Positions 22,335 through 42,201 are shown, numbered from the stretch's first letter. The stretch is DNA of 64,000 bases from Bacillota bacterium (GCA_023397655.1 JAEWTW010000057.1:50842-114841); one strand, 5' to 3'. Made by a program: numbers and translations. Notes: generated by a model not told the origin, from the sequence alone.

Positions 22335-22395
22335 ATCCGAAAAGTTGAAAGGTTGTGAAATAAAATCCGGTGTAGCATCAAGAAAAAAGGAGGAC

Positions 22396-22794
22396 ATGGA
22401 TATGCAGATTGATGTAACGCAGCTCATTATCGCGGCGGCGGGGCTGGTATTTTCCGCGGTGATCATACCGCTGGTGAAGGCGGCTTTCACCTGGCTGAAG
22501 GGTAAGACGGAGAACGAGGCGCTGCAGGCCGCACTCGGCGAGGCGCAGGCGCTGGCGGACACCGTGGTGGCGAGCCTGCAGCAGACGGTGGCGGAAGGGC
22601 TGAAAGAGAGGTCGACCGACGGCAAGCTGACCGCCGACGACGCGCGGGAGGTGGCTGACCTCGCGGTGGAGATGTTCCTTTCCGACCTGTCCGCAAAGTC
22701 GCTCGCGCTGCTGGAGGACAACGCCGGAGACATCATCGCGTATGTGAGCAACCTGCTGGAAGCGCGCCTGCTGCGCCTGAAGGAGGGGAAGTAA
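22396..22794 (+). CDS. LL-H-family holin-like protein (N-terminal TM plus helical tail)
   Basis: ATG 22396 follows AAAGGAGGA. LIIAAAGLVFSAVIIPLVKAAF is the TM, followed by an Ala/Glu/Leu-rich helical tail (QQTVAEGLKERSTDGKLTADDA...GDIIAYV...LEARL). The layout matches Phage_holin_6_1/LL-H holins from memory. Confidence 0.55.
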   Translation: MDMQIDVTQLIIAAAGLVFSAVIIPLVKAAFTWLKGKTENEALQAALGEAQALADTVVASLQQTVAEGLKERSTDGKLTADDAREVADLAVEMFLSDLSAKSLALLEDNAGDIIAYVSNLLEARLLRLKEGK

Positions 22795-23367
22795 TTGTCG
22801 GACTGGGATGAGCAAATCAAGAAGCAGCATGAAGCGCAGCTGAAGGCCCAGACCAAACAGCTGGAGTCCAGCTACGGACAGAACCGTCAGGACTACGGCA
22901 GGCAGATCGTTGAGGCGGGCGAGCAGTATCAGACGGTGCGCAATCAGGCGCACGCCGACAACGCGATGGCGGAGCAGGCGCGCCGGGAAAACATGGCCAA
23001 CATGGGAATGTCGGGCGCGGGCGGAACCTCGCAGACTCTGCAGCAACGCAATCAGACAGCACTGCTGGACACCATGGGCGACACGAACCGGCAGCAGCAG
23101 GACTATACCGACAACATCAAGCTGGCGCTGGGCAACCTCACGACGAAGTATGAAGCCGATATGTTTTCCGCGCAGCAGCAGACGACAGCGGAAGAGCTGG
23201 CAGCGAAGACGGCAGCCGACCAGTGGCAGCGCCAGTTCGGCCTCAGCCAGCAGCAGTTTGACCTGACCCAAAAGAACAGCGCGTTTGACCAGGCGTGGGC
23301 GTTGTATCAAAAGCGCCGCATCACCAAGAAACAGTTTGAACAGATGACCGGCTATAAGCTGAGGTAG
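22795..23367 (+). CDS. Gln-rich coiled-coil protein, a stand-alone paralog of the toxin N-terminal domain
   Basis: The TTG start abuts the holin stop and follows GGAGGGGAAG. It aligns along its length with residues ~80-180 of the 1504-aa toxin (GDT.RQ...DN...AL..L ... QQQ..L..KNS.FDQ...LY.KR....F..MTG.K). Confidence 0.6.
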   Translation: MSDWDEQIKKQHEAQLKAQTKQLESSYGQNRQDYGRQIVEAGEQYQTVRNQAHADNAMAEQARRENMANMGMSGAGGTSQTLQQRNQTALLDTMGDTNRQQQDYTDNIKLALGNLTTKYEADMFSAQQQTTAEELAAKTAADQWQRQFGLSQQQFDLTQKNSAFDQAWALYQKRRITKKQFEQMTGYKLR

Positions 23368-23376
23368 GAGGACGGG

Positions 23377-26300
23377 ATGGCGAAAAACGAACCATTACAC
23401 GACAATGAGCTGAGAATTCAGCGCGGCACGCTGGACGACAACCACAGCGCGGACACCCGTATGTACCGCGACATGCTGGCGGACAGCGACGCGGCGTATG
23501 AGGCGCTCAAAACGCAGGCGCGCATCGACAGGGCCCTCTCTGAGCTGGCGGGGGGCCCTGCCCGCTCCTCCGCAACGCTGAAAGCCCGCGAGATGAGCGC
23601 GCTGCGCAACGAGCTGGGCGACACCGAACGGCAGCACGAGCGCTTCGCCGACAACGTGGACTACGCGCTGGCGGGCCTTGCCCGCAAAAAGGACGCGGAC
23701 GAGGTGGTCGCCGAGAACATGAGCATTGCCCGTCAAGCCGCCGCGGAGATCAACCAGGGCAAATTCGACGCGGAGCTGAACCTGCAGCAGCAGTACCATG
23801 ACCTCAACAAGAAGAACAGCGTGTTCGACCAGATGTATAAGCTGTATACCAAGCGGCTGGTGGGCAAGGACGCGTTCAAGGCCATGACGGGCATAAAGGT
23901 GAAGGCGATGCCGAAGCCAAAGGTACATCATGCACCTAAGCCGACAATCATTTCAATGGGCAGCAAAGAGCCGGCAGCGCAGGCGGGGTACACCGTAAAG
24001 ACTGCCTATCATCCGATGACGGGGGCAAAAACATACTATTTGGTCAAAAACGAAACCGCAAAAGGCATGGACGAAAACGGCGTCAGCTTGCAGGACAAAA
24101 CTGGAAAGGTGAAGGCAGAACCTGAATTGTATTTGGAGGTGAACATTGACGGATATAAGGACGCGGACAGCGCTGAGCAGCTGGCAATCATTCAAGAGAA
24201 TAAAGATGATATTGTTGTACGCTACGGTGAAGATTTTTATAAGTTGCTGACGTCACATCTGACGACAATGGACATAGTTGAGCAGGTATATGATCCGGCA
24301 GATGTGTGGGCGATCGGCTCAGCGTTCAATCAGTTGCTTCTGGCATCAAACGACGATGAATGGCAAGCTGCTGCCGAGGGGTATAAAGCGGCGGTAGACA
24401 CTGGCGAAGAAAACCTGAGGAATACGTATAAAGGTGAGCCAAGCTGGAGTAAAACTATTCAGCTTATACCTGATATGGAGGAATTCCAATATGATGAGAG
24501 CAATTTAGACGACAAGAGAAGAAAGTATGCGGACAAGCCGCCGGCTGCGGTAACGAGCGAAGCGCTGGCAAGCAAATTCAAAGAACGCTTTGGGGTTCTG
24601 GACGGAGACCCGCTCAAGGATGCGTTTGATGAACCCGAATTGGCGGCGCTAAACATCGACTGGTCCCAACTTTCGGTTGATCAGCTGCTGGCTGTTGGCA
24701 CGTATTTGTCTGCGAACCAAACTAAAGGGGGAAGCACAACAGAAACTGATGAGAAGTTAGACCAGCTGATCCAGGAAGGAAAGAACATATTTGAGGTTGT
24801 TACATATCGGTATATGGACAGCGTCATACAAGTCAGGAATTCGATGGAGGACGACGAAACAAGGAAGAAGCGCCAGGAAGATGAAAACGAAAGGATAATG
24901 TGGGGCGATCTTTCGACTCAGGATAGATTTAACAACGCGGTGGCGGACATTAAACAATACCAGAAAGATTATCAAGAATATACCTTCTATGTGAATTACG
25001 ATGTTGATGCCGCGAAACAGGAATTGGATGATACGAATGAGCAACTGAATGATGCGGCATCGGATCTTTTAAACTTTATGGACAATGAAGGTTATGGTGA
25101 AACCAAGAGGGTGCTTGGTTTATCGGATGAAGCTTTTAATGAAATCAGAGGAAAAATGAATGCTAATAATGATTTTGAAGCGCTAAAGACTTTTAACAAT
25201 CTGATAGATGCGATGGATATGTATCAAGATCAGGCGAATCTAATTGAGACAGATATCATTATGGCGGAAGAATGGAAGAAGAGGGACAAAAAGTATAAGT
25301 ACGAAGATGGCATCCTCGGGATGGAAGATTTAACCGCGACATCCCTGCAAGGCGCACAGATAAAGAATCCAAAAGTCATTGATTTAATGTTTGGAACCGG
25401 CGAAGTAAAAAATGTGTATGTATTCGCAAGTTTTCTGAACAGCGACACGGTAATGGACGAGCTGATGAGCGCTGAGGTCGGCGAACGCGGAGGTGATACC
25501 GAAGACCTGTATGAATGGATAGAAACGCAACGCGTCATTTATGAGAAATATACATACATGACGGATACTGAAAAAACCGTTTACAACTACCTGCTAAAAA
25601 AAGAAGGTGATTCCAGCGCTAATGATTATCTGAAAATGATCGATGAATCGCTGAATATGAGGCAGGGCTTGGCTGAAGCTTCGGCGCTGGAAGGCAAGCC
25701 GGTGGCACAGGTATTGTACAGTTTTGGCGCAGGTCTTGACAGCTTTGGATCAGGCATCCGGCAGCTGTTTTCCAGCGACAGGCTATCCACAACTGCCACG
25801 CAATTTGCCTCAAATGCGATATATCAAGATCTGGCGGGCGACGACCCCGACAGCGTGAGTTTTGGACAGCTGCTTTATAATACAGGCAACATGGCCGGAT
25901 ATATGGCGCCCGTCATATTATTGAATGTCGCGACGGCTGGTACGACAATTCCGGCGACTGTTACTGCGCAGATTGGCTCTACAGTGATGGCATTGAGCGC
26001 CACGGGCAATGCCTATAATCAGGCGCTGGGGCAAGGCTATACGAAGGGAGAAGCACGGCTTGAGGCACTACTCACCGGGCTGTATACTTACGCGACCAGC
26101 CAGGCTATGTTCTCCGGGCTGCAGAAGGTGGTGGGATTAGCGTCGGGAATGACCGGAGCTACTTTTGGGCAGCAAATTGCAAAATTAGCTGTGTTGACTT
26201 TCGGTTCGATGGAAGTAGCATTTACAAGAGGGACGCAAATCACGCTTGTTAAGAACATTGCTGAGGCACTACTGATGGGAGACAAGTCTGGATTTGCGCA

Positions 26301-27891
26301 ATCCATTGCAATGTATCAGAATCGTGGGTTTAGCCAAAAAGAAGCGACAGGGCTGGCTTTCATCGACTGGTTTTTTACCAATCCGCTCGAAACCGGTGGT
26401 AAAATGGGCGCAATGGCGGGGCTCTCCGTTTTCCCGGCTGCCGCAAGAACGGCATACGGTGCGATGAACGCAGCTGGTGAACAGATATACGGGCAGCCTC
26501 TGCTGACAGCGGGTGGGCAGACAGCAGGTGCGGCACAGAACTCGGCTGCATCCACAGCCTCTGCTGCCTCTACAGCATACCCCGCGTCTGCCACTTCCAC
26601 CGCGCTGACGCCGGTCTATGGCGGAACGTCAATGCCCTTACAGCCGTTTACAGGAACGGCGCCTGAACTGACGGCAATCGGCGCAGGGGGATACGCGGGA
26701 CGCACGAGCATGCCTCAAACGAACGGCACATATGACAACACGCCGATGTTGCCCGCAGGTTTCAGGCAGATGGGACTGAGCGATGATGCCGCGGATTTCG
26801 CAGCTAAACTGGATGCTTATCTGATGAAGCTGCCAGCTCCGAAGAGCGACGGCAAAGCACCTGAAGAGCTTACACCCTACACAGGCGGGCTGACCCTGCC
26901 GCCAGCGGCCGCCGCCATAAAAGCGCCGTCCAACGTGGCCAGAGGCGTGGGCGACACAGCCGAAGAACTGCAGGCGCTGTCGGACAAAACATCGCTTGAC
27001 CTGTTTGACGAGAACGTGCGGAACAAATATTTCGGGTTCGCGCTGGACGGCACGCTGGGCAAAGCCAAATCGATGTATGACGCCTCCCTTCAAAGCCTGG
27101 AAAACGGCATAGCGCAAAGCGCGCCGCAGCCCGCGGCGGAGCTGATGCAGCAGGCGGATGTGGTGGAGAGGCGGCTGGGCGAGGTGTATGAGGCAGCGGG
27201 AGTAAGCAAAGGCTATTCTCCTGAAACGAACACATCACAACCACAGATTACATCGGACCCCCCCGCCACAGACGTCGGCACCCTGTTCAGCGACTATTTC
27301 GACGCCATCGGCGCGGACGAGATGCCGCCGTTTGCTGAGTTCGGGAAGATGTACCGCAAAGGTGGGGACGCGTGGAAGGAGCTGACGCTGAAGAAGGGCT
27401 GGAAGGATGCGCTGAAGAGCGGCGAAGTTGAGCCTTTTACGCGGTTTGAAGACTATAAGGCGACGGCGGGCGTGGACGGAAATGGAGGAATGGGATATAA
27501 TGAAGGGCAAGAGTTTTCCGAACGTATAGAGTTTAACCTTGTTGAAATTGTTGATTCTGATACAGGAAAGTTCATAATAAAGGATTGGAGTGAATATCCA
27601 GATGATTACGTTCCATTACCTGACAAATCTAAAGTATGGGTATTCGTAGAGGGAGAGGAATATGAACAATCAAGGAAACAAGCAAATGAGGTTAATAAAA
27701 ATTTGAGATTGGGAGATCGTTATTACAGCGATAATAGATTGGAAATTCACGAGATAGAACCTGTTAAATTTGGCGGTAGTCCAACAGATTTAGCTAATAA
27801 GGCTGCTATTCAAGGACAGGTTCATAGGAAATACGTTACTCCGTGGTGGAATAAAATACGAGATGAAATAAAGAGAGGATTGGATAAATAA
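23377..27891 (+). CDS. Polymorphic toxin, 1504 aa: novel N-terminal coiled-coil domain, AT-rich middle, Gly/Ala-rich hydrophobic region, pre-toxin region, HNH/EndoVII-type nuclease tip
   Basis: RBS GGAGGA. No signal peptide (MAKNEPLHDNELRIQRG). The tip motif is LEIHEIEPVKFGGSPTDLANKAAIQGQVHRKY. An immunity gene follows 4 nt downstream. Several internal segments are copied in the downstream cassettes. Confidence 0.85.
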   Translation: MAKNEPLHDNELRIQRGTLDDNHSADTRMYRDMLADSDAAYEALKTQARIDRALSELAGGPARSSATLKAREMSALRNELGDTERQHERFADNVDYALAGLARKKDADEVVAENMSIARQAAAEINQGKFDAELNLQQQYHDLNKKNSVFDQMYKLYTKRLVGKDAFKAMTGIKVKAMPKPKVHHAPKPTIISMGSKEPAAQAGYTVKTAYHPMTGAKTYYLVKNETAKGMDENGVSLQDKTGKVKAEPELYLEVNIDGYKDADSAEQLAIIQENKDDIVVRYGEDFYKLLTSHLTTMDIVEQVYDPADVWAIGSAFNQLLLASNDDEWQAAAEGYKAAVDTGEENLRNTYKGEPSWSKTIQLIPDMEEFQYDESNLDDKRRKYADKPPAAVTSEALASKFKERFGVLDGDPLKDAFDEPELAALNIDWSQLSVDQLLAVGTYLSANQTKGGSTTETDEKLDQLIQEGKNIFEVVTYRYMDSVIQVRNSMEDDETRKKRQEDENERIMWGDLSTQDRFNNAVADIKQYQKDYQEYTFYVNYDVDAAKQELDDTNEQLNDAASDLLNFMDNEGYGETKRVLGLSDEAFNEIRGKMNANNDFEALKTFNNLIDAMDMYQDQANLIETDIIMAEEWKKRDKKYKYEDGILGMEDLTATSLQGAQIKNPKVIDLMFGTGEVKNVYVFASFLNSDTVMDELMSAEVGERGGDTEDLYEWIETQRVIYEKYTYMTDTEKTVYNYLLKKEGDSSANDYLKMIDESLNMRQGLAEASALEGKPVAQVLYSFGAGLDSFGSGIRQLFSSDRLSTTATQFASNAIYQDLAGDDPDSVSFGQLLYNTGNMAGYMAPVILLNVATAGTTIPATVTAQIGSTVMALSATGNAYNQALGQGYTKGEARLEALLTGLYTYATSQAMFSGLQKVVGLASGMTGATFGQQIAKLAVLTFGSMEVAFTRGTQITLVKNIAEALLMGDKSGFAQSIAMYQNRGFSQKEATGLAFIDWFFTNPLETGGKMGAMAGLSVFPAAARTAYGAMNAAGEQIYGQPLLTAGGQTAGAAQNSAASTASAASTAYPASATSTALTPVYGGTSMPLQPFTGTAPELTAIGAGGYAGRTSMPQTNGTYDNTPMLPAGFRQMGLSDDAADFAAKLDAYLMKLPAPKSDGKAPEELTPYTGGLTLPPAAAAIKAPSNVARGVGDTAEELQALSDKTSLDLFDENVRNKYFGFALDGTLGKAKSMYDASLQSLENGIAQSAPQPAAELMQQADVVERRLGEVYEAAGVSKGYSPETNTSQPQITSDPPATDVGTLFSDYFDAIGADEMPPFAEFGKMYRKGGDAWKELTLKKGWKDALKSGEVEPFTRFEDYKATAGVDGNGGMGYNEGQEFSERIEFNLVEIVDSDTGKFIIKDWSEYPDDYVPLPDKSKVWVFVEGEEYEQSRKQANEVNKNLRLGDRYYSDNRLEIHEIEPVKFGGSPTDLANKAAIQGQVHRKYVTPWWNKIRDEIKRGLDK
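23798..23919 (+). repeat. Recombination anchor A (codes DLNKKNSVFDQMYKLYTKRLVGKDAFKAMTGIKVKAMPKP)
   Basis: Near-identical nucleotide copies lie at 40697-40819 (cassette 10) and 41948-42096 (terminal remnant). Confidence 0.85.
27058..27503 (+). repeat. Recombination anchor B (pre-toxin region ending in GVDGNGGMGYNE)
   Basis: Copies lie at 29527-29966 (cassette 3, full length), 28425-28548 (cassette 2, with an internal ~160-nt deletion) and 30886-30950 (cassette 4, 5' part only). Confidence 0.85.
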
Positions 27892-27895
27892 TACT

Positions 27896-28312
27896 ATGGA
27901 ATTTCTAAATGAAGATCTCTTTAAGAATTTCAATTTTCAAAGAGATGAAAAAAATACCGAAAGTCAAATAGGTAATGCCGAATTAGAGTTAGGAATTAAG
28001 TTTCCTGAAGGGCTTAGAGGTATTTTAAAACAATACAATGGAGGTAGCGGACAAATTGGGAAATCCTATTTAGATTTATGGAGTTTGGAAGATATTGTAG
28101 ACTTCTATCAAGAAAACATGGAAACTGATGCATATATTTTAGTACCGTTTGCCTCGGATGGTTGTGGTATGTCCTTTACTTTAGTTAAAGAAAATACAGA
28201 AATTAGAATTGTACCGATGGATTCTTTGGAATATGAGTATTCAAAAAAATGTAGTAATAATTTTGATGAATTTATTAATGAAGTGTATTCTGGCAACCTA
28301 GTAGAATACTAG
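27896..28312 (+). CDS. SUKH/SMI1-KNR4 family immunity protein (cognate of the HNH tip)
   Basis: 138 aa and AT-rich. LELGIKFPEGLRGILKQYNGG ... LVPFASDGCGMSF is typical of the SMI1_KNR4 fold. Confidence 0.8.
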   Translation: MEFLNEDLFKNFNFQRDEKNTESQIGNAELELGIKFPEGLRGILKQYNGGSGQIGKSYLDLWSLEDIVDFYQENMETDAYILVPFASDGCGMSFTLVKENTEIRIVPMDSLEYEYSKKCSNNFDEFINEVYSGNLVEY

Positions 28313-28391: not shown

Positions 28392-28511
28392 CTTTAAACG
28401 GAATTTGAAATCAAATGAAGATAAAACAAACACACCGGCTGAACCTTCCACCCCAAGCCCCCTGCCACAGACGTCGGCACCCTGTTCAGCGACTATTTCG
28501 ACGCCATCGGC

Positions 28512-28898
28512 GTGGACGGAAAGGGGGCAATGGGATATAATTCATTTGATAAGTCAAATCAAGGAATAGTAAGACCTCAACAAGTTAAGAAGTTAATAGA
28601 TTGGCTAGATAATGATAAAGAATTGTTAAATGAAGTTTCAGAGTGGTTTAAGGAAAAACCAGAATGGTGGGGAATTGATCCGGAGAATACTGATGTGTTT
28701 TATAGACCACCACAAGAAGTAAAAGAGATTAGATCAAAAGCAGGCGAAAGCGGAGGGCATCATCCACATGGATTGGCACTTGGAGGGCCAGAAGGACAGA
28801 GACTTACCCCGACAGGTGAAACAGCAATGATAAAGAATCCAACACATAGCCAAGTAACCGGTTTGCAAAGACGCGTACTTAATAGAATAAAAAAGTAG
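28512..28898 (+). CDS. Orphan toxin tip, cassette 2: GHH-type HNH/EndoVII nuclease
   Basis: GESGGHHPHGLALGGPEGQRLTP...NPTHS motif. It is preceded by an anchor-B copy from 28425. It has no RBS of its own, and the 'start' is an in-frame GTG inside the anchor. Confidence 0.7.
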   Translation: MDGKGAMGYNSFDKSNQGIVRPQQVKKLIDWLDNDKELLNEVSEWFKEKPEWWGIDPENTDVFYRPPQEVKEIRSKAGESGGHHPHGLALGGPEGQRLTPTGETAMIKNPTHSQVTGLQRRVLNRIKK

Positions 28899-28925
28899 AT
28901 TATAAAATAGGAGGAGACAAACAAG

Positions 28926-29411
28926 ATGTGTAATGATTTTATTTACTGGGCTAAAGATCATGGATGGGATATAGTTATTAAATCTGATGCTCTTCTTGAA
29001 TTAAACAATAACATTACTTCAAGATATGGAAGTATACCTCGTAGCTATATTAAGTTTTTAAAAAAGGTTAAGAGATGCATATCACCTGGTGAGAAAACAT
29101 GGTTTTTATGTGAAGACGAGTACAATAATAACTCGGATATAGCATTTAAATGGAACGAATTTGAGATATTAAGTCTTGAAGTAGCCAAGAATGATAATGA
29201 GTGGAAATATGAAATAGCCTCATGGTGGGATAGGTACTTACCAATAGTTTTGTCAGTTGATGATGGATATTCTTTCTTCGCTATTGATTTAGCGAATGAT
29301 ATAGGGACTATCGTACAAGGATTTGAACCTGAATTCGAAGAGGTGGAGAAAATAGCAAATAGCCTAGAAGATTTTTTCAGATTAATTATGAGTAATGCTA
29401 TTAAAATTTAA
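28926..29411 (+). CDS. SUKH/SMI1-KNR4-like immunity protein (cassette 2)
   Basis: RBS GGAGGAG. 161 aa and AT-rich. YGSIPRSYIKFLKK ... YLPIVLSVDDGYSFFAID pattern. Confidence 0.7.
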   Translation: MCNDFIYWAKDHGWDIVIKSDALLELNNNITSRYGSIPRSYIKFLKKVKRCISPGEKTWFLCEDEYNNNSDIAFKWNEFEILSLEVAKNDNEWKYEIASWWDRYLPIVLSVDDGYSFFAIDLANDIGTIVQGFEPEFEEVEKIANSLEDFFRLIMSNAIKI

Positions 29412-29517: not shown

Positions 29518-29537
29518 CCATCGGAAAGGCCAAATCG

Positions 29538-34121: not shown

Positions 34122-34452
34122 TGAAGCAAGGGAAAATATAAGAATAGTAAGAAAAATAGCAGAAAATATATGGGATGGAAAATGTAGCTTTGGTGATATA
34201 AAAGTTACCAATTCACCATACGCTGAATTTATAATGCCATTGATTCTTTATAATAGCGTTAACGTAATACTGACATATGATCGCTCTATATTAGGAATTG
34301 CAATTAAGCAGGAAGGAGGAGAAATATGGCTAGATGATTTAACTACTCAGTTAGTTTATGATGGTTTTGAGAGCTGCAAGCCAGAAAACATAGAACATAA
34401 TTTTAAAATATTGGATACGATAGCTCGGGAAATAATTAATAGAGAAATTTAA
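34111..34452 (+). CDS. Putative immunity protein (cassette 5)
   Basis: ATG 34111 follows GGAGGA and overlaps the toxin stop (34119-34121) by 11 nt. 113 aa and AT-rich. Confidence 0.6.
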   Translation: MLDDEARENIRIVRKIAENIWDGKCSFGDIKVTNSPYAEFIMPLILYNSVNVILTYDRSILGIAIKQEGGEIWLDDLTTQLVYDGFESCKPENIEHNFKILDTIAREIINREI

Positions 34453-34629
34453 ATAAATAAGTAAATAACATTTACAGCCTGAGTTATTTTATATTAACGC
34501 AGGCCTTTTTTATCTAAATTGGGAGCTAATCACCGTGAACGCAGGAACGAAATTTGTTTTAACGATATTAAGGGTCAGTAAGAGTGTGTAACATATACCT
34601 TTGACCCACAGAGGACAATCAGCGCCGCT

Positions 34630-35304
34630 ATGGAAGCGGATTTCAATGTCAGAATACGCGGTATGATGGACGAAGCATATGCGGCGGGCGAGGGCGGATT
34701 ATCTGCGGGAGAGTTTGCACAAGGCAAAGGCGTTCCCGGCACATTCACGGATGCGGACGCGGCTGGCATGACGATGAAGATGGACGGAGAGGGGGATGTT
34801 GGGTATAATGGAGGGCAAGGAAATAAAGATGTATTACCTGATGCTTTAATTCGCGGAGATGATATGCCTTATTCTGAAAAGAGGCCAAATGGTATATCAA
34901 AGTCTCATTTAACATCTGAGGGTGATCTTGCTCCTGCAAACATTAAAGGACAGTATAAAGGAAGAATGGTCACGGTTGCAGAACATATTCTCGGTGGCTA
35001 TAGGAAAGGGGCTAAGGGAAATAGCCCGTATACGAGTTTTACATATGAGGACGGGATTGTAACTAATTATGGGAACAATGTTATCCAAGTCAATTTAAAG
35101 GAGATCATTGATGATATTGTGAATGGGAAACTCAAAGGTGTTGAGGTGTTGACTCCAAGCCATGTACAAGCCGCAATTCTATCTGACGTCCAATTAAACG
35201 ATTACTGGAGAAATCTAGCTATAAAATGGACTAGGAGAGATAATGAGTGGCTAATAAAGGGCATGATACCCAGAAAATACTTAACAATAATGGAGGACGC
35301 ATAA
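34630..35304 (+). CDS. Orphan toxin tip, cassette 6: possible ART-fold (H-Y-E-like) toxin
   Basis: Frame is open from 34582. An anchor D copy is followed by a tip with AEHILGG, SPYTSFTYEDG and RRDNEWLIKGMIP. The ART assignment is tentative. Confidence 0.5.
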   Translation: MEADFNVRIRGMMDEAYAAGEGGLSAGEFAQGKGVPGTFTDADAAGMTMKMDGEGDVGYNGGQGNKDVLPDALIRGDDMPYSEKRPNGISKSHLTSEGDLAPANIKGQYKGRMVTVAEHILGGYRKGAKGNSPYTSFTYEDGIVTNYGNNVIQVNLKEIIDDIVNGKLKGVEVLTPSHVQAAILSDVQLNDYWRNLAIKWTRRDNEWLIKGMIPRKYLTIMEDA

Positions 35305-35579
35305 TGGAAATCTTATTTAAAAAAGAAACGATAGGCAAGATAGAGAATACATATAGAGAAGATTACTGGGTACACGGCAATTTCATCCCATATATTTCAT
35401 ATTTGAAGTATAAAGATTTTCTCGATGCGGTTGTTTGTGAAGATGGGATGGACGAAACTCAATTCGATAAAGCGTTACTGGACGAGAAAAATTGGTTTAT
35501 TGTAGATAGAGATGAACTCAAGGAGATATGGATACCAGCTATTTACGCTGACGGCGATATATCAATTAGGTATAGATAA
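35304..35579 (+). CDS. Putative immunity protein (cassette 6)
   Basis: TAATG overlap with the toxin stop. RBS GGAGGA. 91 aa. Confidence 0.6.
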   Translation: MEILFKKETIGKIENTYREDYWVHGNFIPYISYLKYKDFLDAVVCEDGMDETQFDKALLDEKNWFIVDRDELKEIWIPAIYADGDISIRYR

Positions 35580-35666: not shown

Positions 35667-35828
35667 TATATCTTCGCTAACATGAACAGAACCTTTTAGT
35701 TCGGGCTGTTTACACGAGGTAAAAGCGGCAACACCTATACAGACCCGCAGACCGGCAAGCCCATCGACATTCCCGACGGCAAAACGCTGGCGGACATCGA
35801 CCCCGAAGCAGCCAGCTTTTACAAAGGC

Positions 35829-36674
35829 TTGGGCGAAACGCGAATGGATGGCGAACTGCACAATGCCATGGGAGACATATATTTGAGTTATATGGATATT
35901 CCCGAAAGTGTGGTGTCACGCTCGGAATTCGCACCGCTTGAAATAGCATACCGCAACTACGAAGCAAACCCGACGGTAGCGAACGCAGCAGCTTTTATCG
36001 ATGAAGCCGGGAAGGTGCAGCGTATAGCGGTTGGTAATGGGTATAGCGTGGACAGCCCGAATGTGAAGGTTAATGCGGCGATGGAGGCGGATGCGGCGAA
36101 GCGGTTGGGGACGGCTGGTGCATATTCTGAGCGCGTTGACAGTTTCGCAAATATAGAAGATAATAACAATAAAAATATTGGTGTGTTAAAGAAGAAAAAT
36201 GTTACCCAAGTTGCATATGGCGAGCAATATATTAAAGGAAAGAATGGACGAAAAGAACTAAAATCCAATGTAGCTTATACGACTGCTGATGGTTACAAAT
36301 ACTCGACGGATGAACTTGGGCGTATTGATGAAGCGGACGGAATGCTTGTCAGAGGCGATGGCAAAAGAAATGAGTATGCGCAAAGTATCATTGGTCGAGA
36401 AGATAGACTGCCAACGGATGATGGAGGGCATCTTATTGCCAGAATATTTAAAGGTTCTGGGGATATTGACAATCTGGTGCCAATGGATGCGACATTAAAC
36501 CGCGGTGATTGGAAGGCAATGGAGAATACATGGAAAAGGGCACTTGATGAAGGTGGCGAAGTGAGAGTAAAAATTAGACCTATTTATGAAGGCTCATCAA
36601 CAAGGCCAGTTTCTTTTGTGGCAAAGTATAGTATTGAAGGACAAAACATGAAGATTGTTGTATTTGATAATTAA
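35829..36674 (+). CDS. Orphan toxin tip, cassette 7: EsaD/YeeF-type DNA/RNA non-specific endonuclease (Endonuclease_NS_2)
   Basis: DDGGHLIARIFKGSGDIDNLVPMDATLNRGDWKAMENTWKRALDEGGEVRVKIRPIYEGSSTRP is a close match to the EsaD/YeeF-CT pattern. The anchor C copy starts at 35700. Confidence 0.8.
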   Translation: MGETRMDGELHNAMGDIYLSYMDIPESVVSRSEFAPLEIAYRNYEANPTVANAAAFIDEAGKVQRIAVGNGYSVDSPNVKVNAAMEADAAKRLGTAGAYSERVDSFANIEDNNNKNIGVLKKKNVTQVAYGEQYIKGKNGRKELKSNVAYTTADGYKYSTDELGRIDEADGMLVRGDGKRNEYAQSIIGREDRLPTDDGGHLIARIFKGSGDIDNLVPMDATLNRGDWKAMENTWKRALDEGGEVRVKIRPIYEGSSTRPVSFVAKYSIEGQNMKIVVFDN

Positions 36675-36684
36675 GGAGACAAAA

Positions 36685-37155
36685 ATGATTGATGAAAGAA
36701 ATCTAACAAAATACTATCAAAGTATTGCTGAGAAATTAGATGATATAGTTCCTTTCGAATGGGACGAGATAGTTATGTATGGTGAAGAATTTGGAGATGT
36801 CAGAACTGCTTGTTTGTACTATAAACAAAAAGGAAAAGAAAATTATAGATCAGGCGGGCTAATTCCAAGTGAAAATTCTGTAGATGCTGATATTTATGCA
36901 GGATTAGTATATGAATTGATTCAAATAAATAAAAGATTGTGGAAAGAATTTTTGGATGCAGAGATACCGTTATGGGTAACAATTACTTTTCATTTATCCT
37001 CCGATTATCATTTTAAAGTTAAATTTGGATATGAAGCAAATAGGGAATTAAGCAGTACAGAACGAGAAATACACTGGGCATATAATGAGCTTGGGATAAT
37101 ACCTGAAGATGGTTTTTCCAAAAAAATACTTGAAGAATACTTATCTGGAAATTAA
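36685..37155 (+). CDS. DUF600/YezG(EsaG)-family immunity protein (cassette 7)
   Basis: RBS AAGGAG. YYQSIAEKLDDIVPFEWDEIVMYGE...ACLYYKQ matches the DUF600 N-terminal pattern. This family is the known partner of EsaD/YeeF-type nucleases. Confidence 0.75.
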   Translation: MIDERNLTKYYQSIAEKLDDIVPFEWDEIVMYGEEFGDVRTACLYYKQKGKENYRSGGLIPSENSVDADIYAGLVYELIQINKRLWKEFLDAEIPLWVTITFHLSSDYHFKVKFGYEANRELSSTEREIHWAYNELGIIPEDGFSKKILEEYLSGN

Positions 37156-37176: not shown

Positions 37177-37210
37177 GGCCGGAGAGAAAAACTTTCCGGC
37201 TTTTTTATTT
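37177..37210 (+). terminator. Cassette-boundary hairpin terminator (after cassette 7)
   Basis: GCCGGA-GAGAAAAACTT-TCCGGC followed by TTTTTTATTT. Confidence 0.7.
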
Positions 37211-37267
37211 GCTGACCCGCAAACCGGCAAAGCCATAGACAGCCCCGACAGTAAAACGCTGGCGGAC

Positions 37268-38230
37268 GTGAACTCCGAAGCGGCCAGCTTTTACAAGGGG
37301 CTGGGCGACACAAAGGTCACCGGCGAACTGCACAGCGCCATGGGGGACATCTACATGAATTACTTGGATATCCCCGAAAGCGTGGTATCCAATACGGAAT
37401 TCGCGCCGATGGAGACAGCCTATCGCAACTACGAAGCGAACCCGACGATAGCCAATGCCGCAGCGTTCATCAATGAGGCGGGGAAGGTGCAGCGTATAGC
37501 GGTAGGCAATGCGGCGATGGAGGTGGATGCGGCAGGGCTGGGGACGCAGACTGAGATTGGCGTTGAGGCCACTGACATAGGAGTTAAGACAACTGATATT
37601 GGAGCCAGTGCAACGGATGTCGGGAAGAATGCAACGGACATCGGAGCGACAGCGAAGGCATATGTTGACAGTGGAAGTGGTGCGGGGGATAATGGGAGTA
37701 TACAGAAAGCTGTTGATCACCTTGAGAAATTTGCAGTTGATAATGGTGTAGGGAAATTTTCGTTAAGTACTGAACAGATACTGAAACTATCCGGTGGCAA
37801 TATAGATTTAGCTGAAAGATTGATGCTAGCGACGAAAGAGGTGTTACCAGGAAGGTCAGTCTCAGAATTAGCCCAGATGTACGATTTACCAAATAATCCT
37901 GATCCCGCTTCACTTACAACATATGAAGTACGTATCTGGTATTTATGGCAAGAGTCACAATTCAACAGCAGATTGGATTATAGCAAGCCACTTGAACAGG
38001 TTGCATATGATGCTTTTAATATGAGAAACGAGACAAGGACAAAAGCAAGGGATGTGATGATGGACAGGGCTTGGGCAGATCACTTAATGGAAGGTGAGAA
38101 AAATAAGACGTTTGAGCAAATTGTTAATTATTATAACAAGAAAAAATATACAGGGAATGAATTATGGAAAAAAATAATTGAAAGTGCAACAAGATCAAGG
38201 GATAGTGTGAATAAATTATTTGGCTTATAG
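37268..38230 (+). CDS. Orphan toxin tip, cassette 8: unassigned helical toxin domain
   Basis: Anchor C copy from 37213, then DIG repeats, then the AT-rich tip from ~37690 (TYEVRIWYLWQESQF...NMRNETRTKARDVMMDRAWADHL...SATRSRDSVNKLFGL). Confidence 0.6.
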   Translation: MNSEAASFYKGLGDTKVTGELHSAMGDIYMNYLDIPESVVSNTEFAPMETAYRNYEANPTIANAAAFINEAGKVQRIAVGNAAMEVDAAGLGTQTEIGVEATDIGVKTTDIGASATDVGKNATDIGATAKAYVDSGSGAGDNGSIQKAVDHLEKFAVDNGVGKFSLSTEQILKLSGGNIDLAERLMLATKEVLPGRSVSELAQMYDLPNNPDPASLTTYEVRIWYLWQESQFNSRLDYSKPLEQVAYDAFNMRNETRTKARDVMMDRAWADHLMEGEKNKTFEQIVNYYNKKKYTGNELWKKIIESATRSRDSVNKLFGL

Positions 38231-38240
38231 GAGGCTGTTT

Positions 38241-38549
38241 ATGGAAAAAAAATTGATTGAAGCTTTTGAACATGACTATGTAGAATACCATTTTGTTGAA
38301 TTTGATGATGGTATGGACTTTATCAGAATCACAGAGATCATAAAAGACAAAATTGGTCCGGATAAAATGGATTACCAAGGAATTGAAGATATGCATGGTT
38401 TTTTTGAGAAAGATAACCTCCATGTTGATTTAGAATACGATGGAATGATCGGTAATTGGATGGAGTTTAAAGGCGAACAATCGGAAAGAAATTTGGAAAA
38501 AGTAAGAGAATGGGCAAAAATAGTATTTGAAAACTTGATGGAAGTATAG
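38241..38549 (+). CDS. Putative immunity protein (cassette 8)
   Basis: ATG 38241 follows AGGAGG. 102 aa, acidic and AT-rich. Confidence 0.6.
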   Translation: MEKKLIEAFEHDYVEYHFVEFDDGMDFIRITEIIKDKIGPDKMDYQGIEDMHGFFEKDNLHVDLEYDGMIGNWMEFKGEQSERNLEKVREWAKIVFENLMEV

Positions 38550-38590: not shown

Positions 38591-40257
38591 ATGTTGTTTT
38601 CGCCGGGTTTTTCCCCGGCTTTTCTTTTACCAGAAACGCCAACGACAATACCTATATTGATCCCGCAAACCGGCAAGCCCATTGACATCCCCAACGGTAA
38701 AACGCTGGCGGACATCGACCCCGAAGCAGCCAGCTTTTACAAAGGCTTGGGCGAAACGCAAATGGATGGCGAACTGCACAATGCCATGGGGGACATATAT
38801 TTGAGTTATATGAACATTCCCGAAAGAGTGGTGTCCAACACGGAATTCGCACCGATGGAGACAGCCTACCGCAACTACGAAGCGAACCCGACGGTATCGA
38901 ACGCGGCGGCGTTCATCAATGAGGCGGGGAAGGTGCAGCGTATAGCGGTAGGCAATGGGTATAGTGTAGACAGCCCGTATACGAGGGTAAACGCGGCGGT
39001 AGAGGCGGATGCGGCAGGACTGGGAGTGAAGACTGAGATTGGCGTTGGGGCCACTGACATAGGAGCAACAGCAACAGATATTGGAGCCAGTGCAACGGAT
39101 GTCGGGAAGAATGCAACGGACATCGGAGCGACAGCGAAGGCATACGGCGTATGCAATGGTTACAGGCTTCTTTACAAGTCTTATCATGGAGGCTGGACCC
39201 ACTGTCCGAAGCGAGATCAGCAATGCCAAGGCAGGCCGCGGCGTCATCGAGTCCGGAAAATATCAGGAGCTGATGGACAACGCACTGATGCTGGACCCGA
39301 AGACAGAGGCGTATCGGACAGCAAAAGGCATACAGGACGGCAGCATCCACGCAAACGATTACAACGTGGGCGCGCTGCTGCGGGCATACGTGGACGTCAC
39401 AGGAGAGGCGGCGTTCATGCGCGATATGTCACAGATCATGAAGACGCCTGTCAGCACGGCGGAGCGGTTTGTTGATATGTTATCCCGTCTGAACCAGAAC
39501 GCCAAGGCATCCCCCGCGGTAACCGATGCTATCAGCAACTATATCACAACGATGCAGGACCTGGGCGACGCCATACCGGCCAATGTGCAGGACGCCGTTA
39601 TGGAGGCATACCGCACATTCGAGGCCGACGGCACAAACAACAACGCGTTGACAGTGATTCAGACAGCGCTGCAAAGCATCGACAGCGCCATCATGCAGGG
39701 ATTACAATCCGGCACTGATGTGACGGGGCTGCTGACCCTGCGCAGCCAGATGGAAAGCGGTCTGAGCGGGAGCATACAAAAAGGCATCTTTGCTTCCAAG
39801 GCGGTCAACACCAAAGTCATGGCGGACGCGGTGACGACGCTGCTGAAGCTGCCCGCGGATGTGCAAGCAGCGATAGACATTGATGCGCTGTCACAGGCGT
39901 ACTACGACTACCTGACGGCGGGTAAGAAGGGCAAGACGGAGGCGGAGGCCAAAGCGGTGGATGCACTGTTCACCAAGAAAAGGTGAACCAGGCCAATTAT
40001 TGATAGATCCTGATGCTTCCTTTAGCGCTTTACAGCACGAATTAAGCCATTTTATTCAGGCTCAAAGACAGGGCTTTCCTTCGGCAGTTGAGAAATATGA
40101 GGATTGGAATGGTAGAATTGCTGATGAGTATAAGGCTTACAGTATAGAAATCTCAGAGGCTAAAGAATTGGGATTAGAAAATGTAGTAAAGCAATTACAA
40201 AAAAACTTTGAAGCCGAGAAACAATATATTATTGAACGTTATGGACCAATAAACTAA
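38591..40257 (+). pseudogene. Chimeric orphan, cassette 9: anchor C + DIG repeats | GC-rich fragment of another cargo | anchor E | HExxH metallopeptidase-like tip; three reading frames
   Basis: ORFs 38591-39475, 39081-39986 and 39961-40257 carry the meaningful sequence in successive frames. The breaks are at ~39146 (a sequence junction after TAKAY) and at the A4 run 39978-39981. The tip is GEPGQLLIDPDASFSALQHELSHFIQ. Confidence 0.6.
38602..38628 (+). terminator. Cassette-boundary hairpin terminator (after cassette 8)
   Basis: GCCGGG-TTTTT-CCCCGGC followed by TTTTCTTTT. Confidence 0.7.
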
Positions 40258-40278
40258 CAATAGAAAGGAGAGCTACCT

Positions 40279-40632
40279 ATGTCAATGTCTGAAATGTATC
40301 AAAAGCTTAAGAACAATACAATAAATAATGATGAGCTTATTACTTGTCTTAAATCCGAAAACTATAGAATAGTAGCAATATCGATATCAAGATTAATCGA
40401 AAGGAATATAAGTAATCAAGATGCAGTTAGTAGACTCGAGAAATTAAGCAATCTTCTATCAAACAGTAAATTTGTCGGGCCATGGCAAATGGGGCATTTT
40501 GCTATAGCTGCCTTACTGTTACTAAAAAACAATAACGTAGAAAATAGAGCAAAAGAATTATATGATAAACTTAGCGAAAAAGATAAGTTTTTAGTTGATA
40601 ATTTTATTAAGGCAGAAGCCTACAAACTCTAA
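40279..40632 (+). CDS. Putative immunity protein (cassette 9)
   Basis: RBS AAAGGAGAG. 117 aa, AT-rich and helical. Confidence 0.6.
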   Translation: MSMSEMYQKLKNNTINNDELITCLKSENYRIVAISISRLIERNISNQDAVSRLEKLSNLLSNSKFVGPWQMGHFAIAALLLLKNNNVENRAKELYDKLSEKDKFLVDNFIKAEAYKL

Positions 40633-40680: not shown

Positions 40681-40732
40681 GTCACGGAACTAATACCATG
40701 ATCTCAACAAGAAGAACAGCGTCTTCGACCAG

Positions 40733-41641
40733 ATGTATAAGCTGTATACTAAGCGGCTGGTGGGCAAGGACGCATTCAAGGCGATGACGGGCATTGAGGT
40801 AAAGGCTATGCCGAAGCCGCATAGGAATGTGCGTAAGCCAAATATGATTGCAGTCAGCAAGGATTGGAAAGGGACGCCTCCAAAAGGCTATAAGATGCGC
40901 GGCAGCTACGACAAGAACACCAAAGCGATGGCCGACGCCGTGACGACGCTGCTGAAACTGCCCGCGGATGTACAGGCGGCGATAGACATTGATGCGCTCT
41001 CACAATCGTACTACGACTTCCTGACGGCGGGCAAAAAGGGCAAGACGGCAGCGCAGGCCAAAGCGGTAGAGATGCTGTTCACAAGTGTGGAAGCGGCGAT
41101 AGCGTCGGGCAAGCTGGATGCGGCGTCGGTGCAGCAGTTACAAGGGTTGTTGGCGGAGATTGACAGCAAGAAGAGCGTGGGGGATAATGTAAGTGAATTT
41201 GAAGTGAGTGCTGCTAAGTACGCAGGTGGTCGTATAAGAATAGACACCAGAAAATTTACGACCGAAGAGTATTCAGAGTATGAAGAAATAGGGGATCAAA
41301 TGTATGACAATATCAGAGATACGCGAGATGATGTTGATAAAATAGCGAAAAACACCGGATGGGACAGAGTTAAAATTCAAGCAATCAAAAGTCATTTGTT
41401 TTTTGAAAAGCATTTGTTCGACGATGGAGAAATAAGGCTATTTGATTCGGACTATTGGCAAGCTGAAGCTTGGATAAGGATGACGGTAGGTAATATGACA
41501 GAGTTAGACGAAGTGCTCTTAAAACACGAATTCTTTGAATTGGAATATATTAGAGAGCATAAATGCACCTATGAAGAAGCCCATAAGAGGCAACAAAGCT
41601 ATATGACTGGTATGGACAAATGTTCATTGGGTAGGTCTTAG
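40733..41641 (+). CDS. Orphan short alternative toxin body, cassette 10: anchor A + anchor E + unassigned tip
   Basis: It starts inside an anchor A copy (40697-40819) and shares KAMADAVTTLLKLPADVQAAIDIDALSQ.YYD.LTAGKKGKT with cassette 9 (40919-41085 versus 39811-39975). The AT-rich tip begins at ~41200 (IKSHLFFEKHLFDDGEIRLFDSDYWQAEAWIRM...LLKHEFFELEYIREH). Confidence 0.6.
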   Translation: MYKLYTKRLVGKDAFKAMTGIEVKAMPKPHRNVRKPNMIAVSKDWKGTPPKGYKMRGSYDKNTKAMADAVTTLLKLPADVQAAIDIDALSQSYYDFLTAGKKGKTAAQAKAVEMLFTSVEAAIASGKLDAASVQQLQGLLAEIDSKKSVGDNVSEFEVSAAKYAGGRIRIDTRKFTTEEYSEYEEIGDQMYDNIRDTRDDVDKIAKNTGWDRVKIQAIKSHLFFEKHLFDDGEIRLFDSDYWQAEAWIRMTVGNMTELDEVLLKHEFFELEYIREHKCTYEEAHKRQQSYMTGMDKCSLGRS

Positions 41642-41654
41642 AAAGGAGTAAAAT

Positions 41655-41900
41655 ATGTCACTATATGTAATTATTGAAAAGGTATATGAGAATGAAAAGC
41701 AAGTTGTTTATAATTTTGGGCCTAGCCCGAACTCTTTTGAAAAGTTAGTGATCAACAAAGAGACTGGGGAGATAAATAGACTCGAAACATCAGTAAACAA
41801 TCCGAACTATTATTATCTTAAAGCAGTAGCCAAATTGAATAGGCACATAAAGAGTAATCCTTCAGACCAATATCCAGACAAATTAATATATGCATCATAA
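41655..41900 (+). CDS. Putative immunity protein (cassette 10)
   Basis: RBS AAAGGAG. 81 aa and AT-rich. Confidence 0.55.
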   Translation: MSLYVIIEKVYENEKQVVYNFGPSPNSFEKLVINKETGEINRLETSVNNPNYYYLKAVAKLNRHIKSNPSDQYPDKLIYAS

Positions 41901-41911
41901 TTTTTCGGTTC

Positions 41912-41938
41912 GCCGGGCTTGCCCGGCTTTTTCTTTTC
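41912..41938 (+). terminator. Cassette-boundary hairpin terminator (after cassette 10)
   Basis: GCCGGGC-TT-GCCCGGC followed by TTTTTCTTTTC. Confidence 0.7.
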
Positions 41939-41947
41939 TATCGCGGG

Positions 41948-42096
41948 GAACTGGGCCTCAAAAAGCAGTATCACGAGTTGAACAAAAAGAACAGCGTGTT
42001 CGACCAGATGTATAAGCTTTACACCAAGCGGCTGGTGGGCAAGGACGCGTTCAAGGCAATGACGGGCATCGAGGTGAAGGCGATGCCGAAGCCGCA
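41948..42096 (+). pseudogene. Terminal anchor-A remnant with no toxin tip (right edge of the island)
   Basis: It codes ELGLKKQYHELNKKNSVFDQMYKLYTKRLVGKDAFKAMTGIEVKAMPKPH, then runs into unrelated sequence just upstream of the GH3 gene. Confidence 0.7.
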
Positions 42097-42201
42097 TAAT
42101 AAGTGCGCTTTCCGTCTGGCACAGCTGTCTGTTCTGATGTATAATATGCCCATCCCATATACAACCGAAACCATACACCCATTCCCAAAGGAGCAAACCG
42201 C

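Follow-up and report, generated by a model that had tools for sequence, protein, structure and literature searches.

Toxin loci with arrays of orphan cassettes are well known for the CdiA, Rhs, MafB and LXG families. A 64-kb stretch of DNA from a Bacillota bacterium (JAEWTW010000057.1:50842-114841) carries such an array behind a large toxin gene, and raises the questions of what kind of toxin system this is, how the toxin might leave the cell, and whether cassettes that seem to be silent are silent in every respect. In this report, "the window" means the whole 64-kb stretch, and positions are counted from its first letter. Related loci are designated L001 to L020, and related proteins carry P numbers.

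Polymorphic toxins have been defined by a conserved N-terminal and central part, a variable C-terminal toxin and an adjacent immunity gene (Zhang et al. 2012, PMC3482391). The general features of such systems are present in the region from 22402 to 42093, namely a variable tip on a conserved backbone, an immunity gene after the tip, and homologous 5'-truncated cassettes. We consider this region, with a probability of roughly 0.78, to be a polymorphic-toxin island of a rare and apparently undescribed family on the chromosome of an uncultured Bacillota bacterium with a GC content of about 60%. One point that counts against this assignment is that the host organism is represented by metagenome sequences only. 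A first-pass annotation of the window had already proposed an orphan-array polymorphic toxin, and this proposal is supported along four independent lines: by family matches, by a mobile main tip, by polymorphism of the chromosomal site, and by an AHH-like tip shared with the related toxin P0001. Two elements described below were not part of that annotation: a pair of conserved upstream partners, consisting of a holin-like gene and a gene for a paralogous 190-amino-acid protein (p190), and a promoter-like motif at the tip junctions.

Layout of the island

The island comprises one full-length toxin gene (23377..27891, plus strand; 1504 amino acids [aa] according to calls of open reading frames [ORFs]), nine 5'-truncated cassettes of a tip and a partner gene, and a 130-nucleotide (nt) terminal remnant. 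ORF calls, base composition and a comparison of the window with itself by blastn all agree with this count, which is also that of the first-pass annotation. Alcohol dehydrogenase and HbpS-like genes lie on one side of the island and a GH3 glycosidase gene lies on the other, an arrangement found in three genomes. Flanking genes and the greater part of the toxin gene have a GC content of about 0.6, which falls to 0.33-0.35 over the last ~400 nt of the toxin gene and the next ORF. The same step recurs ten times up to 42.1 kb, in keeping with the earlier description of unit after unit in which a GC-rich stretch switches abruptly to an AT-rich tip. The centre of the toxin gene (24000-25700) is also AT-richer (GC content 0.36-0.50) than the ends of the gene.

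A self-comparison had been suggested as a check, and it reveals off-diagonal homology that bears out the claim that each cassette head copies part of the large gene or of another cassette. The large gene supplies the matches between 27058-27504 and 29523-29968 (90% identity) and between 27259-27319 and 28458-28518 (97%). Other matches join cassettes to one another: 29486-29585 with 30849-30948 (93%), 31838-32069 with 34593-34824 (84%), 39807-39973 with 40916-41082 (87%), and 31496-31805 with sequences at 33173, 35699, 37214 and 38641 (72-84%). Pieces of the ORF at 30975-32528 are repeated at 33173, 34593, 35699, 37214 and 38641 (72-88%). Finally, the 3' end of the segment that encodes the N-terminal domain (N-domain) of the toxin, at 23789-23918, is copied at 40694-40818 and at 41964-42093 (91.5-93%). 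The last of these copies is the terminal remnant (41964..42093, plus strand), a 130-nt direct repeat of 23789-23918 that forms the right-hand edge of the variable block. This block (23925-41908) is framed by the 130-nt direct repeats of the N-domain 3' end.

All 10 partner ORFs are small, lie on the same strand as their tip, and adjoin or overlap it. A GGAG-type Shine-Dalgarno sequence precedes nine of them, as judged at the ATG picked for each, and the partner at 27896 has a weak, distant one only. No Shine-Dalgarno sequence was found on any orphan tip fragment examined. On the plus strand, a hairpin with a T-run closes eight of the 10 units, the two without one being units 4 and 5. Both the partners' own Shine-Dalgarno sequences and the closure of most units by a hairpin and T-run had been noted before. 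Given the absent ribosome-binding sites and N-terminal domains, we infer that the cassettes are silent with respect to their tips. Six of the terminators are variants of GCCGGGC-loop-GCCCGGC followed by a T-run (29489-29506, 30852-30869, 33130-33146, 38602-38619, 40651-40668 and 41912-41927). The terminator apparently moves with the head of the next cassette (for example, 29486-29585 resembles 30849-30948), and would therefore mark the joints of successive insertions.

A rare backbone family

The first ~1370 residues of the toxin, which constitute its backbone, gave no match to Pfam (under strict or lax settings), NCBIfam or PDB sequences, consistent with the earlier statement that the backbone lies outside the CdiA, Rhs, MafB and LXG families. 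The same three databases likewise gave nothing for the holin-like protein or for p190. In the PHROG database, the backbone proper and p190 had no match; the holin-like gene and the main tip alone did. A word-index search of 5.8 billion proteins recovered four backbone relatives, and an exhaustive search of 1.84 billion proteins with a hidden Markov model of the N-domain recovered 92 representatives. The backbone family was present in two metagenome-assembled genomes among 185,579 species genomes scanned. We found no description of it in the open literature on holin-associated polymorphic toxins.

An alignment of family members delineates a Gly/Ala-rich, weakly hydrophobic module of ~300 aa (aa 724-1032; 25546..26472, plus strand). 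A profile of this module matches every full-length member (in the window, L001, L002, L008, L019 and L020) and does not match a giant 1812-aa protein from phage contig L005; used in a second word-index search, it yielded one extra protein only. Closer to the tip, a GC-rich pre-tip segment (27058..27472, plus strand) would be the shared substrate for tip exchange. Partial copies of this segment occur at 28458-28518 and 30886-30948, and it is 82% identical to positions 13392-13614 of L008, though the rest of the L008 toxin has diverged.

Polymorphism and proposed recombination

Relatives at the same chromosomal site have the same three-gene head (the holin-like gene, the p190 gene and the N-domain of the toxin gene) with other bodies, other tips and other array lengths. 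From 13375 to 23924, locus L002 and the window share 96.8% identity, and from 41909 they are again 95% identical. Between these breakpoints, L002 has a different toxin body, another tip, and an array of 6.6 kb as against 18 kb in the window. The 130-nt direct repeat lies at both breakpoints, and the same remnant is present in L002 just before the GH3 gene. Because homology with L002 ends at 23924, the toxin body, and not the tip alone, looks exchangeable. In addition, P0004 is an "orphan" that is nearly a whole toxin, with only the first ~130 residues missing. Such nearly complete orphans suggest that exchange takes place at two levels, that is, exchange of the tip by way of the pre-tip segment and exchange of the whole body by way of the N-domain end.

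The mobility of tips is seen when the window is compared with L001. Its toxin, P0001, has an orthologous backbone (54% identity over 99% of a 1308-aa backbone query) and a different tip. The tip expressed in L001 is the AHH-like tip that is an orphan in the window: the tip of unit 2 is 78% identical over 180 aa to the C terminus, that is, the main tip, of full-length P0001, and an Ank ORF follows in L001. The arrays of L003, L019 and L020 contain ADP-ribosyltransferase, Ntox15, Ntox28, MafB19 deaminase, TNT, EndoU and Tox-REase-3 tips, with CdiI and Imm partners.

In the mechanism that we propose, homologous recombination through the pre-tip segments or the N-domain repeat would bring either an orphan tip or an entire body into the expressed gene. 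Such a swap would change which neighbours are killed, and the stored immunity genes would protect against kin that express the corresponding tips. On the comparisons just given, we regard this mechanism, with its altered choice of victims and stored immunity against kin, as quite probable. All strains with identical p190 carry an identical array within 10-kb flanks, and no within-strain switching event was caught among them. Because the toxin is polymorphic and is accompanied by immunity genes, bacteria are its likely targets.

The main tip and its immunity gene

The main tip of the toxin (27502..27891, plus strand) carries the HNH-like pattern HE..PVKFGGSPTD..NK...H..VTPWWN. It has 71 homologs, mostly short orphan-like ORFs; some follow PT-HINT domains or carry the label filamentous hemagglutinin, and Proteobacteria are the source of some. 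Their alignment keeps H87, E88, N103, K104 and H112. The tip matches phrog_24166 (6.2e-21). A model predicted by AlphaFold2 (AF2) has a predicted local distance difference test (pLDDT) score of 89, and four of its five top Foldseek matches in PDB are HNH nucleases. Of the earlier assignment as an HNH/EndoVII-like tip, the conserved pattern and the presence of HNH enzymes among the top folds stand. On the other side, there was no Pfam match and none of the structural matches is significant (E >= 0.2), so the HNH-like fold is plausible and not shown.

The cognate immunity gene is of the SUKH type (27896..28312, plus strand; SMI1_KNR4, 1.9e-15). As previously annotated, it starts 4 nt after the toxin stop codon and follows an AT-rich tip, and the drop in GC content is confirmed. 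A terminator-like hairpin comes after it (28362-28386, plus strand).

A promoter-like motif at the tip junctions

Nine of the 10 tips start, exactly at the composition switch, with the sequence T[TG]GAC[AG]-N17-[TG]ATAAT on the coding strand. The copy at the main tip (27473..27501, plus strand) reads TGGACG-N17-TATAAT and encodes VDGNGGMGYN; more generally, the motif codes for [VMI]D[GSNRE]x5[GE][YD]N. The window has nine exact matches, compared with 0.07 expected, all of them on the plus strand at a GC-to-AT switch and none elsewhere. A further 20 copies are found at tip junctions of L001, L002, L003, L019 and L020.

We calculated information content over 19 junction sites, drawn from the window and L001-L003. 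The hexamers have 2.0 bits within each motif class, the 17-nt spacer has 0.83-1.39 bits, and the flanks have 0.6-0.85 bits. Codon choice within the motif is constant. The Asp codon is always GAC, which has 20% usage in AT-rich tip-type genes; the Asn codon is always AAT, with 16% usage in GC-rich genes; and Val or Ile before TTGACA is always encoded by GTT or ATT (7% and 19% usage, respectively).

These observations allow two interpretations. The one to which we give somewhat better than even odds is that the motif is a sigma-A-type -35/-10 promoter lying inside coding sequence and preserved at synonymous sites. The other, at somewhat under even odds, is that it marks a peptide boundary (a flexible linker, or a place where the protein is processed or cleaved) whose codons are conserved by descent only. 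VENN in CdiA and DPxGL in Rhs are boundary motifs of this kind. In accord with a peptide boundary, the Asp and Asn residues are invariant and Gly is frequent between them, and demarcating peptide motifs exist in known polymorphic toxins (PMC3482391). However, this idea does not sit easily with synonymous positions that are fixed against both local codon regimes, nor with the residue after Asp, which changes among S, N and R while the first base of its codon stays A (AGY or AGR codons). The spacing is strictly 17 nt although the spacer sequence varies freely, and the motif also fits the layout of the cassettes.

In regard to this layout, the junction motif, the ribosome-binding sites that are found on the partners only, and the terminators after most units together suggest that each cassette is a self-contained transcription unit. 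Its order would be a promoter, a tip remnant, a ribosome-binding site with the immunity gene, and a terminator, such that immunity protein could be made even from "silent" cassettes. The predicted promoter would probably drive the immunity genes. Internal promoters inside main and orphan rhs genes of Salmonella provide a precedent (PMC7043789).

Several facts count against the promoter hypothesis. Both hexamers also encode the invariant Asp and Asn, and therefore a role at the peptide level is possible. The hexamers occur in two fixed pairings, TTGACA/GATAAT and TGGACG/TATAAT, and from this perfect linkage it appears that the 29 junction sites have few independent origins; the linkage points to two ancestral alleles and not to many separate events, as the peptide-boundary explanation would have it. 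TGGACG is a weak -35 element. The main toxin gene of L008 keeps TGGACG, and the peptide VDGQGG, with no -10 element, and unit 8 in the window has no junction motif at all.

The cassettes could instead be intracellular toxin-antitoxin or defence modules, comparable to the internal expression of Rhs tips reported in Salmonella, and not parts of an exported weapon. Promoter-like sites at the tips could yield intracellular tip fragments, and no export machinery was identified in the window. We consider this explanation very improbable: the tip fragments have no ribosome-binding sites, a non-toxic backbone of 1370 residues and a conserved head would be needless in a toxin-antitoxin module, and the tips are of types common to exported CdiA, type VII secretion system (T7SS) and PT-HINT toxins.

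The three-gene head

The first gene of the head encodes a 130-aa holin-like membrane protein (22402..22794, plus strand) in which a single N-terminal transmembrane (TM) helix precedes a long tail that is charged and helical. The protein matches two PHROG families annotated as "holin", phrog_36209 (3.5e-9) and phrog_13712 (1.8e-7). The gene is 64-99% identical in L001, L002, L004, L006, L007, L012, L019 and L020, and it is always directly 5' of the p190 gene. The p190 gene (22795..23367, plus strand) abuts the holin-like stop codon with its start, and encodes a helical protein of 190 aa that had no match in Pfam, NCBIfam or PHROG. Along its full length, p190 is a paralog of the toxin N-domain (32% identity to toxin aa 8-176, E 1e-31 by BLASTP). 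It is kept in all related loci except L008.

The third component is the N-domain itself (aa 1-181; 23377..23918, plus strand), a helical hairpin that defines the family and whose last 130 nt are the repeat that would serve as recombination anchor. The AF2 model (pLDDT 93.7) consists of two very long helices at residues 7-58 and 66-158. Foldseek searches of PDB and BFVD with this hairpin returned coiled-coil matches only, none of them significant. The C-terminal "...ITKxQFExMTG" of p190 and the N-domain might be an XkdX-like phage motif, but Pfam did not report it at E <= 1, and we treat it as no more than a lead.

The triad of holin-like gene, p190 gene and toxin gene recurs in L001, L002, L004, L006, L007, L019 and L020, across three chromosomal contexts. 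The holin-like proteins of L019 and L020 retain 69-73% identity to that in the window, as compared with 44% for p190 and ~30% for the N-domains, which makes the holin-like protein the most constrained component of the head.

Upstream of the operon, a search of Rfam revealed no riboswitch or leader. A near-consensus TTGACA-18-TACAAT lies over the stop codon of the HbpS-like gene, within 22164-22330. Hairpins at 22240-22264 and 22304-22324 (the latter with a T-run) follow, and then the holin-like gene; they could form a leader or attenuator, or could be merely the terminator of the upstream gene.

Possible routes of export

The N terminus of the toxin (MAKNEPLHDNELR) has no hydrophobic signal and no signal peptide. 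For this reason, and because no companions of the toxin other than the holin-like protein and p190 are conserved, we favour an export route through these two proteins. In this scheme, p190 would act as a chaperone or adaptor by pairing with the hairpin of the N-domain, and the holin-like protein would give passage through, or release from, the membrane. That export needs the holin-like protein and this pairing is possible, and we put it forward tentatively as a prediction from gene order and conservation.

A number of findings speak against this route. The holin-like protein matched no Pfam holin model, and the "holin" label comes from two PHROG families whose own annotation is untested. No endolysin or other peptidoglycan-hydrolase partner was found in the island; a conserved YkuD transpeptidase, encoded ~4 kb upstream and thus beyond the operon, is the closest cell-wall enzyme. 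The L008 toxin occurs without the holin-like/p190 pair. Conversely, L012 (9653-10762) has a holin-like gene and a p190 homolog (P0010) beside ChW-repeat surface proteins and no toxin gene, which indicates that the pair can exist without a toxin.

The paralogy of p190 and the N-domain also suggests a different route, in which the toxin is a T7SSb substrate of the LXG type. The N-domain and p190 would then form a bundle like those of WXG100 or LXG-Lap proteins, to be read by a T7SS elsewhere in the genome, and the holin-like gene would be incidental or accessory. LXG-Lap operons have a gene for a small helical partner directly upstream of the toxin, as is the case here, and the two helices of the N-domain hairpin make up a domain comparable in length to LXG. 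The paralogy of the partner and the N-domain recalls EsxA/EsxB pairs, and one orphan tip with its partner is an EssD/YezG pair typical of T7SS toxins. Despite these similarities, we regard T7SSb export as unlikely, although it is a serious rival to the route favoured above. Neither Pfam LXG (PF04740) nor WXG100 matched the N-domain or p190 at E <= 1, NCBIfam gave nothing, and there is no conserved LxG or WxG at the hairpin turn across the family. The structural matches of the hairpin are generic coiled coils, no EssC-, EsaA- or EssB-like gene occurs in the window, and the most conserved gene of the head is the holin-like gene.

Another explanation starts from the phage affinities of the head. 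The head might be a remnant derived from a phage, and the toxin might travel with a phage or phage-like particle or be let out by one, in the manner of MuF toxins packed in capsids or of ejection and internal virion proteins; the chromosomal locus would then be a domesticated fragment. Besides the PHROG matches of the holin-like gene and of the main tip (phrog_24166), the gene for a distant p190 homolog (P0083) forms part of a structural module of a phage, with tail-fibre genes on one side and that of the 1812-aa giant on the other. Furthermore, the best BFVD matches of the hairpin include gut Myoviridae and a T7-type "internal virion protein B", and PDB 8e4g (the T7 ejection complex) is also among the structural matches, none being significant. 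On the other hand, no other phage gene flanks the island and no MuF domain is present. The L005 giant shares neither the N-domain nor the hydrophobic module, and p190 found nothing in 50,697 phage records or IMG/VR. We give this explanation little chance.

Two candidates that arose from these phage comparisons were set aside: the L005 giant as a relative of the toxin, which the lack of N-domain and module homology rules out, and the likeness of the hairpin to T7 gp14-type "internal virion protein", which recurs without significance and is not relied on. Searches for relatives of P0083 in phage GenBank records and IMG/VR gave nothing useful. The L005 phage contig (8001-16270) has major head, tail-fibre and serine recombinase genes. 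In it, the 514-aa P0083 precedes the unannotated 1812-aa protein; further along are proteins of 121 aa (an N-terminal TM helix plus a coiled coil) and 60 aa (two TM helices), and one SH3-containing protein.

In summary of the genomic context, T7SS genes, type VI secretion system genes and phage structural genes are all absent from the window. The route by way of the holin-like protein and p190 can be extended to a broader proposal with two parts. One is that the holin-like protein, p190 and the N-domain constitute a self-contained, phage-derived delivery route independent of Sec and T7SS; the other is that the tip-boundary peptide has been co-opted as a portable sigma-A promoter. We regard the combined proposal as doubtful.

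Individual orphan cassettes

All nine cassettes are on the plus strand. Unit 1 (28455..29411) has a 64-nt head, a junction at 28513, a tip that extends to 28898 and a hairpin at 29489. Its partner (28926-29411) is a second SUKH protein (SMI1_KNR4, 6.1e-8). Unit 2 (29523..30832) has a 447-nt head, a junction at 29937, an AHH-like tip to 30331 and a hairpin at 30852; the head contains a frameshift near 29760, which corrects the first-pass annotation. Its ankyrin partner (30332-30832) matches Ank_2 (3.8e-35).

Unit 3 (30849..33044) starts with the scar of a unit-2-type head and continues with ~350 aa of a second backbone type that matches P0004 in L003. After a junction at 32026, its CdiA-CT tip (to 32528) matches CdiA_C (8.6e-19) and PDB 4g6v_A (2.8e-30), which we take to be the CdiA-CT/CdiI complex of Burkholderia pseudomallei. 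The partner (32544-33044) is SitI3-like according to precomputed Pfam results on an identical gene, and a hairpin is present at 33130.

Units 4 and 5, in which no terminator was found, have tips without a family match. Unit 4 (33138..34452) has its junction at 33640 and a tip that extends to 34121, where the partner (34111-34452) overlaps the end of the tip. Unit 5 (34593..35579) has its junction at 34781 and a tip that extends to 35304, where it shares a TAATG stop/start overlap with the partner (35304-35579).

Unit 6 (35699..37155) has a junction at 36136, an EssD/YeeF-type nuclease tip to 36674 (Endonuclea_NS_2, 1.8e-34; EssD PDB 8guo, 3.7e-34) and a hairpin at 37176. The partner (36685-37155) is YezG-like (8.8e-29), which agrees with the DUF600/YezG-like identity first suggested for it. 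Unit 7 (37192..38549) consists of a junction at 37665, a tip without a family match to 38230, a partner at 38241-38549 and a hairpin at 38602.

Unit 8 (38641..40632) is a degenerate mosaic, in which a head of the unit-4/7 type is joined by way of frameshifts to a fragment of a third backbone (39081-39986). The stretch 38641-40257 contains two frameshifts, another correction to the earlier annotation. Its tip (39961-40257) is 5'-truncated, carries HELSH and lacks the junction motif; it is followed by the partner (40279-40632) and a hairpin at 40651. Unit 9 (40694..41900) starts with the copy of the N-domain 3' end (40694-40818), has an internal deletion and a junction at 41160, and ends with a tip without a family match (to 41641), a partner (41655-41900) and a hairpin at 41912.

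Profile or PDB searches thus support two of the orphan tips (the CdiA-CT tip of Burkholderia type and the EssD/Endonuclease_NS_2 tip) and five of the 10 partners (two SUKH, Ank, SitI3 and YezG). Most of the recognisable tips are predicted nucleases, namely the HNH-like and AHH-like tips, the CdiA-CT tip with its tRNase/DNase fold, and the EssD tip. In the earlier list of recognisable tips, the Endonuclease_NS_2 entry holds firmly, and the AHH entry is weak (E 0.018, under the Pfam cut-off). The GHH and HExxH entries are motifs without profile support: the tip of unit 1 shows a visible GGHH with no Tox-GHH match in Pfam, and the HELSH of unit 8 is matched by no Pfam or NCBIfam model. The four tips previously called unassignable (units 4, 5, 7 and 9) still have no family after profile and PDB searches, and these tips and five partners match nothing in Pfam or NCBIfam. 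PDB sequence searches with the GHH-motif tip, the AHH-like tip and those of units 4, 5, 7 and 9 gave spurious matches only. For these units, the assignment as toxin and immunity genes is correspondingly less secure.

Other features of the window

A stand-alone Imm5_like protein (12474-13064, minus strand; Pfam 3.1e-41), which has no neighbouring toxin gene, is encoded about 10 kb before the start of the island and is kept in the syntenic loci L013-L015. After the GH3 gene, the stretch 44586-45027 is AT-rich (GC content ~0.34) and contains an ORF (44643-44996, plus strand, 117 aa) with no Pfam match. This 442-nt stretch is replaced by 33 nt in the otherwise 95% identical L002, and may be a stray immunity-like cassette.

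Two other regions have repeats. The gene at 2106-8180 (plus strand) encodes a 2024-aa Beta_helix_3 repeat protein and includes a tandem duplication of ~1 kb (5496-6558 resembles 6471-7530, 86%) and several sub-repeats of 130-170 nt. On the minus strand, 45314-48874 encodes two leucine-rich repeat (LRR) proteins and an LRR-containing Ser/Thr protein kinase, with repeats at 45837-45937 and 46700-46800; the gene order is kept in L002.

Comparison with known systems

As read from its sequence, the locus has the same grammar as the orphan arrays of CdiA, Rhs, MafB and LXG toxins, and the defining domains of each are missing. By analogy, it would work most like LXG operons, given its helical head, small helical partner and Gram-positive host. 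The LXG toxins (for example, Bacillus subtilis YeeF/YezG and Staphylococcus aureus EssD) likewise occur in Gram-positive hosts and have a helical N-domain of ~180-200 aa, a small helical partner upstream, a variable C-terminal nuclease tip, an immunity gene directly downstream, and then orphan arrays. The present locus differs from them in having no LXG or WXG100 match, a paralogous partner, a holin-like gene, a 1504-aa body with a Gly/Ala-rich module, and no T7SS genes nearby.

The orphan arrays of CdiA/CdiI and Rhs (Escherichia coli EC93 and EC869, Salmonella rhs) resemble the island in their displaced 3' ends, a motif at the tip start, the shift in composition and the immunity genes, and the tip of unit 3 is homologous to a Burkholderia CdiA-CT (4g6v). 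However, the locus has no two-partner secretion or filamentous hemagglutinin repeats: the 1504-aa protein matched none of Haemagg_act, Fil_haemagg and PT-VENN, and the tip of unit 3 alone matched CdiA_C. RHS/YD repeats are absent according to Pfam and NCBIfam, and the host is Gram-positive. In place of VENN or DPxGL, the junction peptide is [VMI]D[GSNRE]x5[GE][YD]N, and in almost all cassettes the DNA that encodes it is close to a consensus -35/-10 pair. In contrast to MafB, there is neither DUF1020 (Pfam) nor a signal peptide.

Holin-dependent release is known from large clostridial toxins with TcdE and from type 10 secretion. The common feature is a large toxin without a signal peptide beside a small membrane protein that is like a phage holin; in the island, however, there is no endolysin-like partner, and the holin assignment consists of PHROG similarity only. 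With the MuF toxins of temperate phages (PMC5576092), the locus has in common a phage-related head, a variable tip, an immunity gene, its occurrence in Bacillota, and a main tip that matches a PHROG. It differs from them in having no Phage_Mu_F domain, housekeeping genes on its flanks, and no prophage around it.

Conclusions

New toxin and immunity folds may be represented among the four tips and the five partners that match no family. The three-gene head recurs across genomes with very different tips, including nucleases, a deaminase, an ADP-ribosyltransferase, TNT and EndoU. The delivery of large toxins in Gram-positive anaerobes that lack an obvious T7SS is much less clear, and for these organisms the head is a testable candidate for a new trafficking route. 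The 29-nt junction motif can be used as a search key with which the tip boundaries of this backbone family are located straight from DNA. If the motif is indeed a promoter, the silent cassettes of orphan arrays would keep their immunity genes expressed from the junction, which would answer an old question. Should the delivery route and the portable promoter both prove true, every cassette moved by recombination would carry its own signal for expression of its immunity gene.

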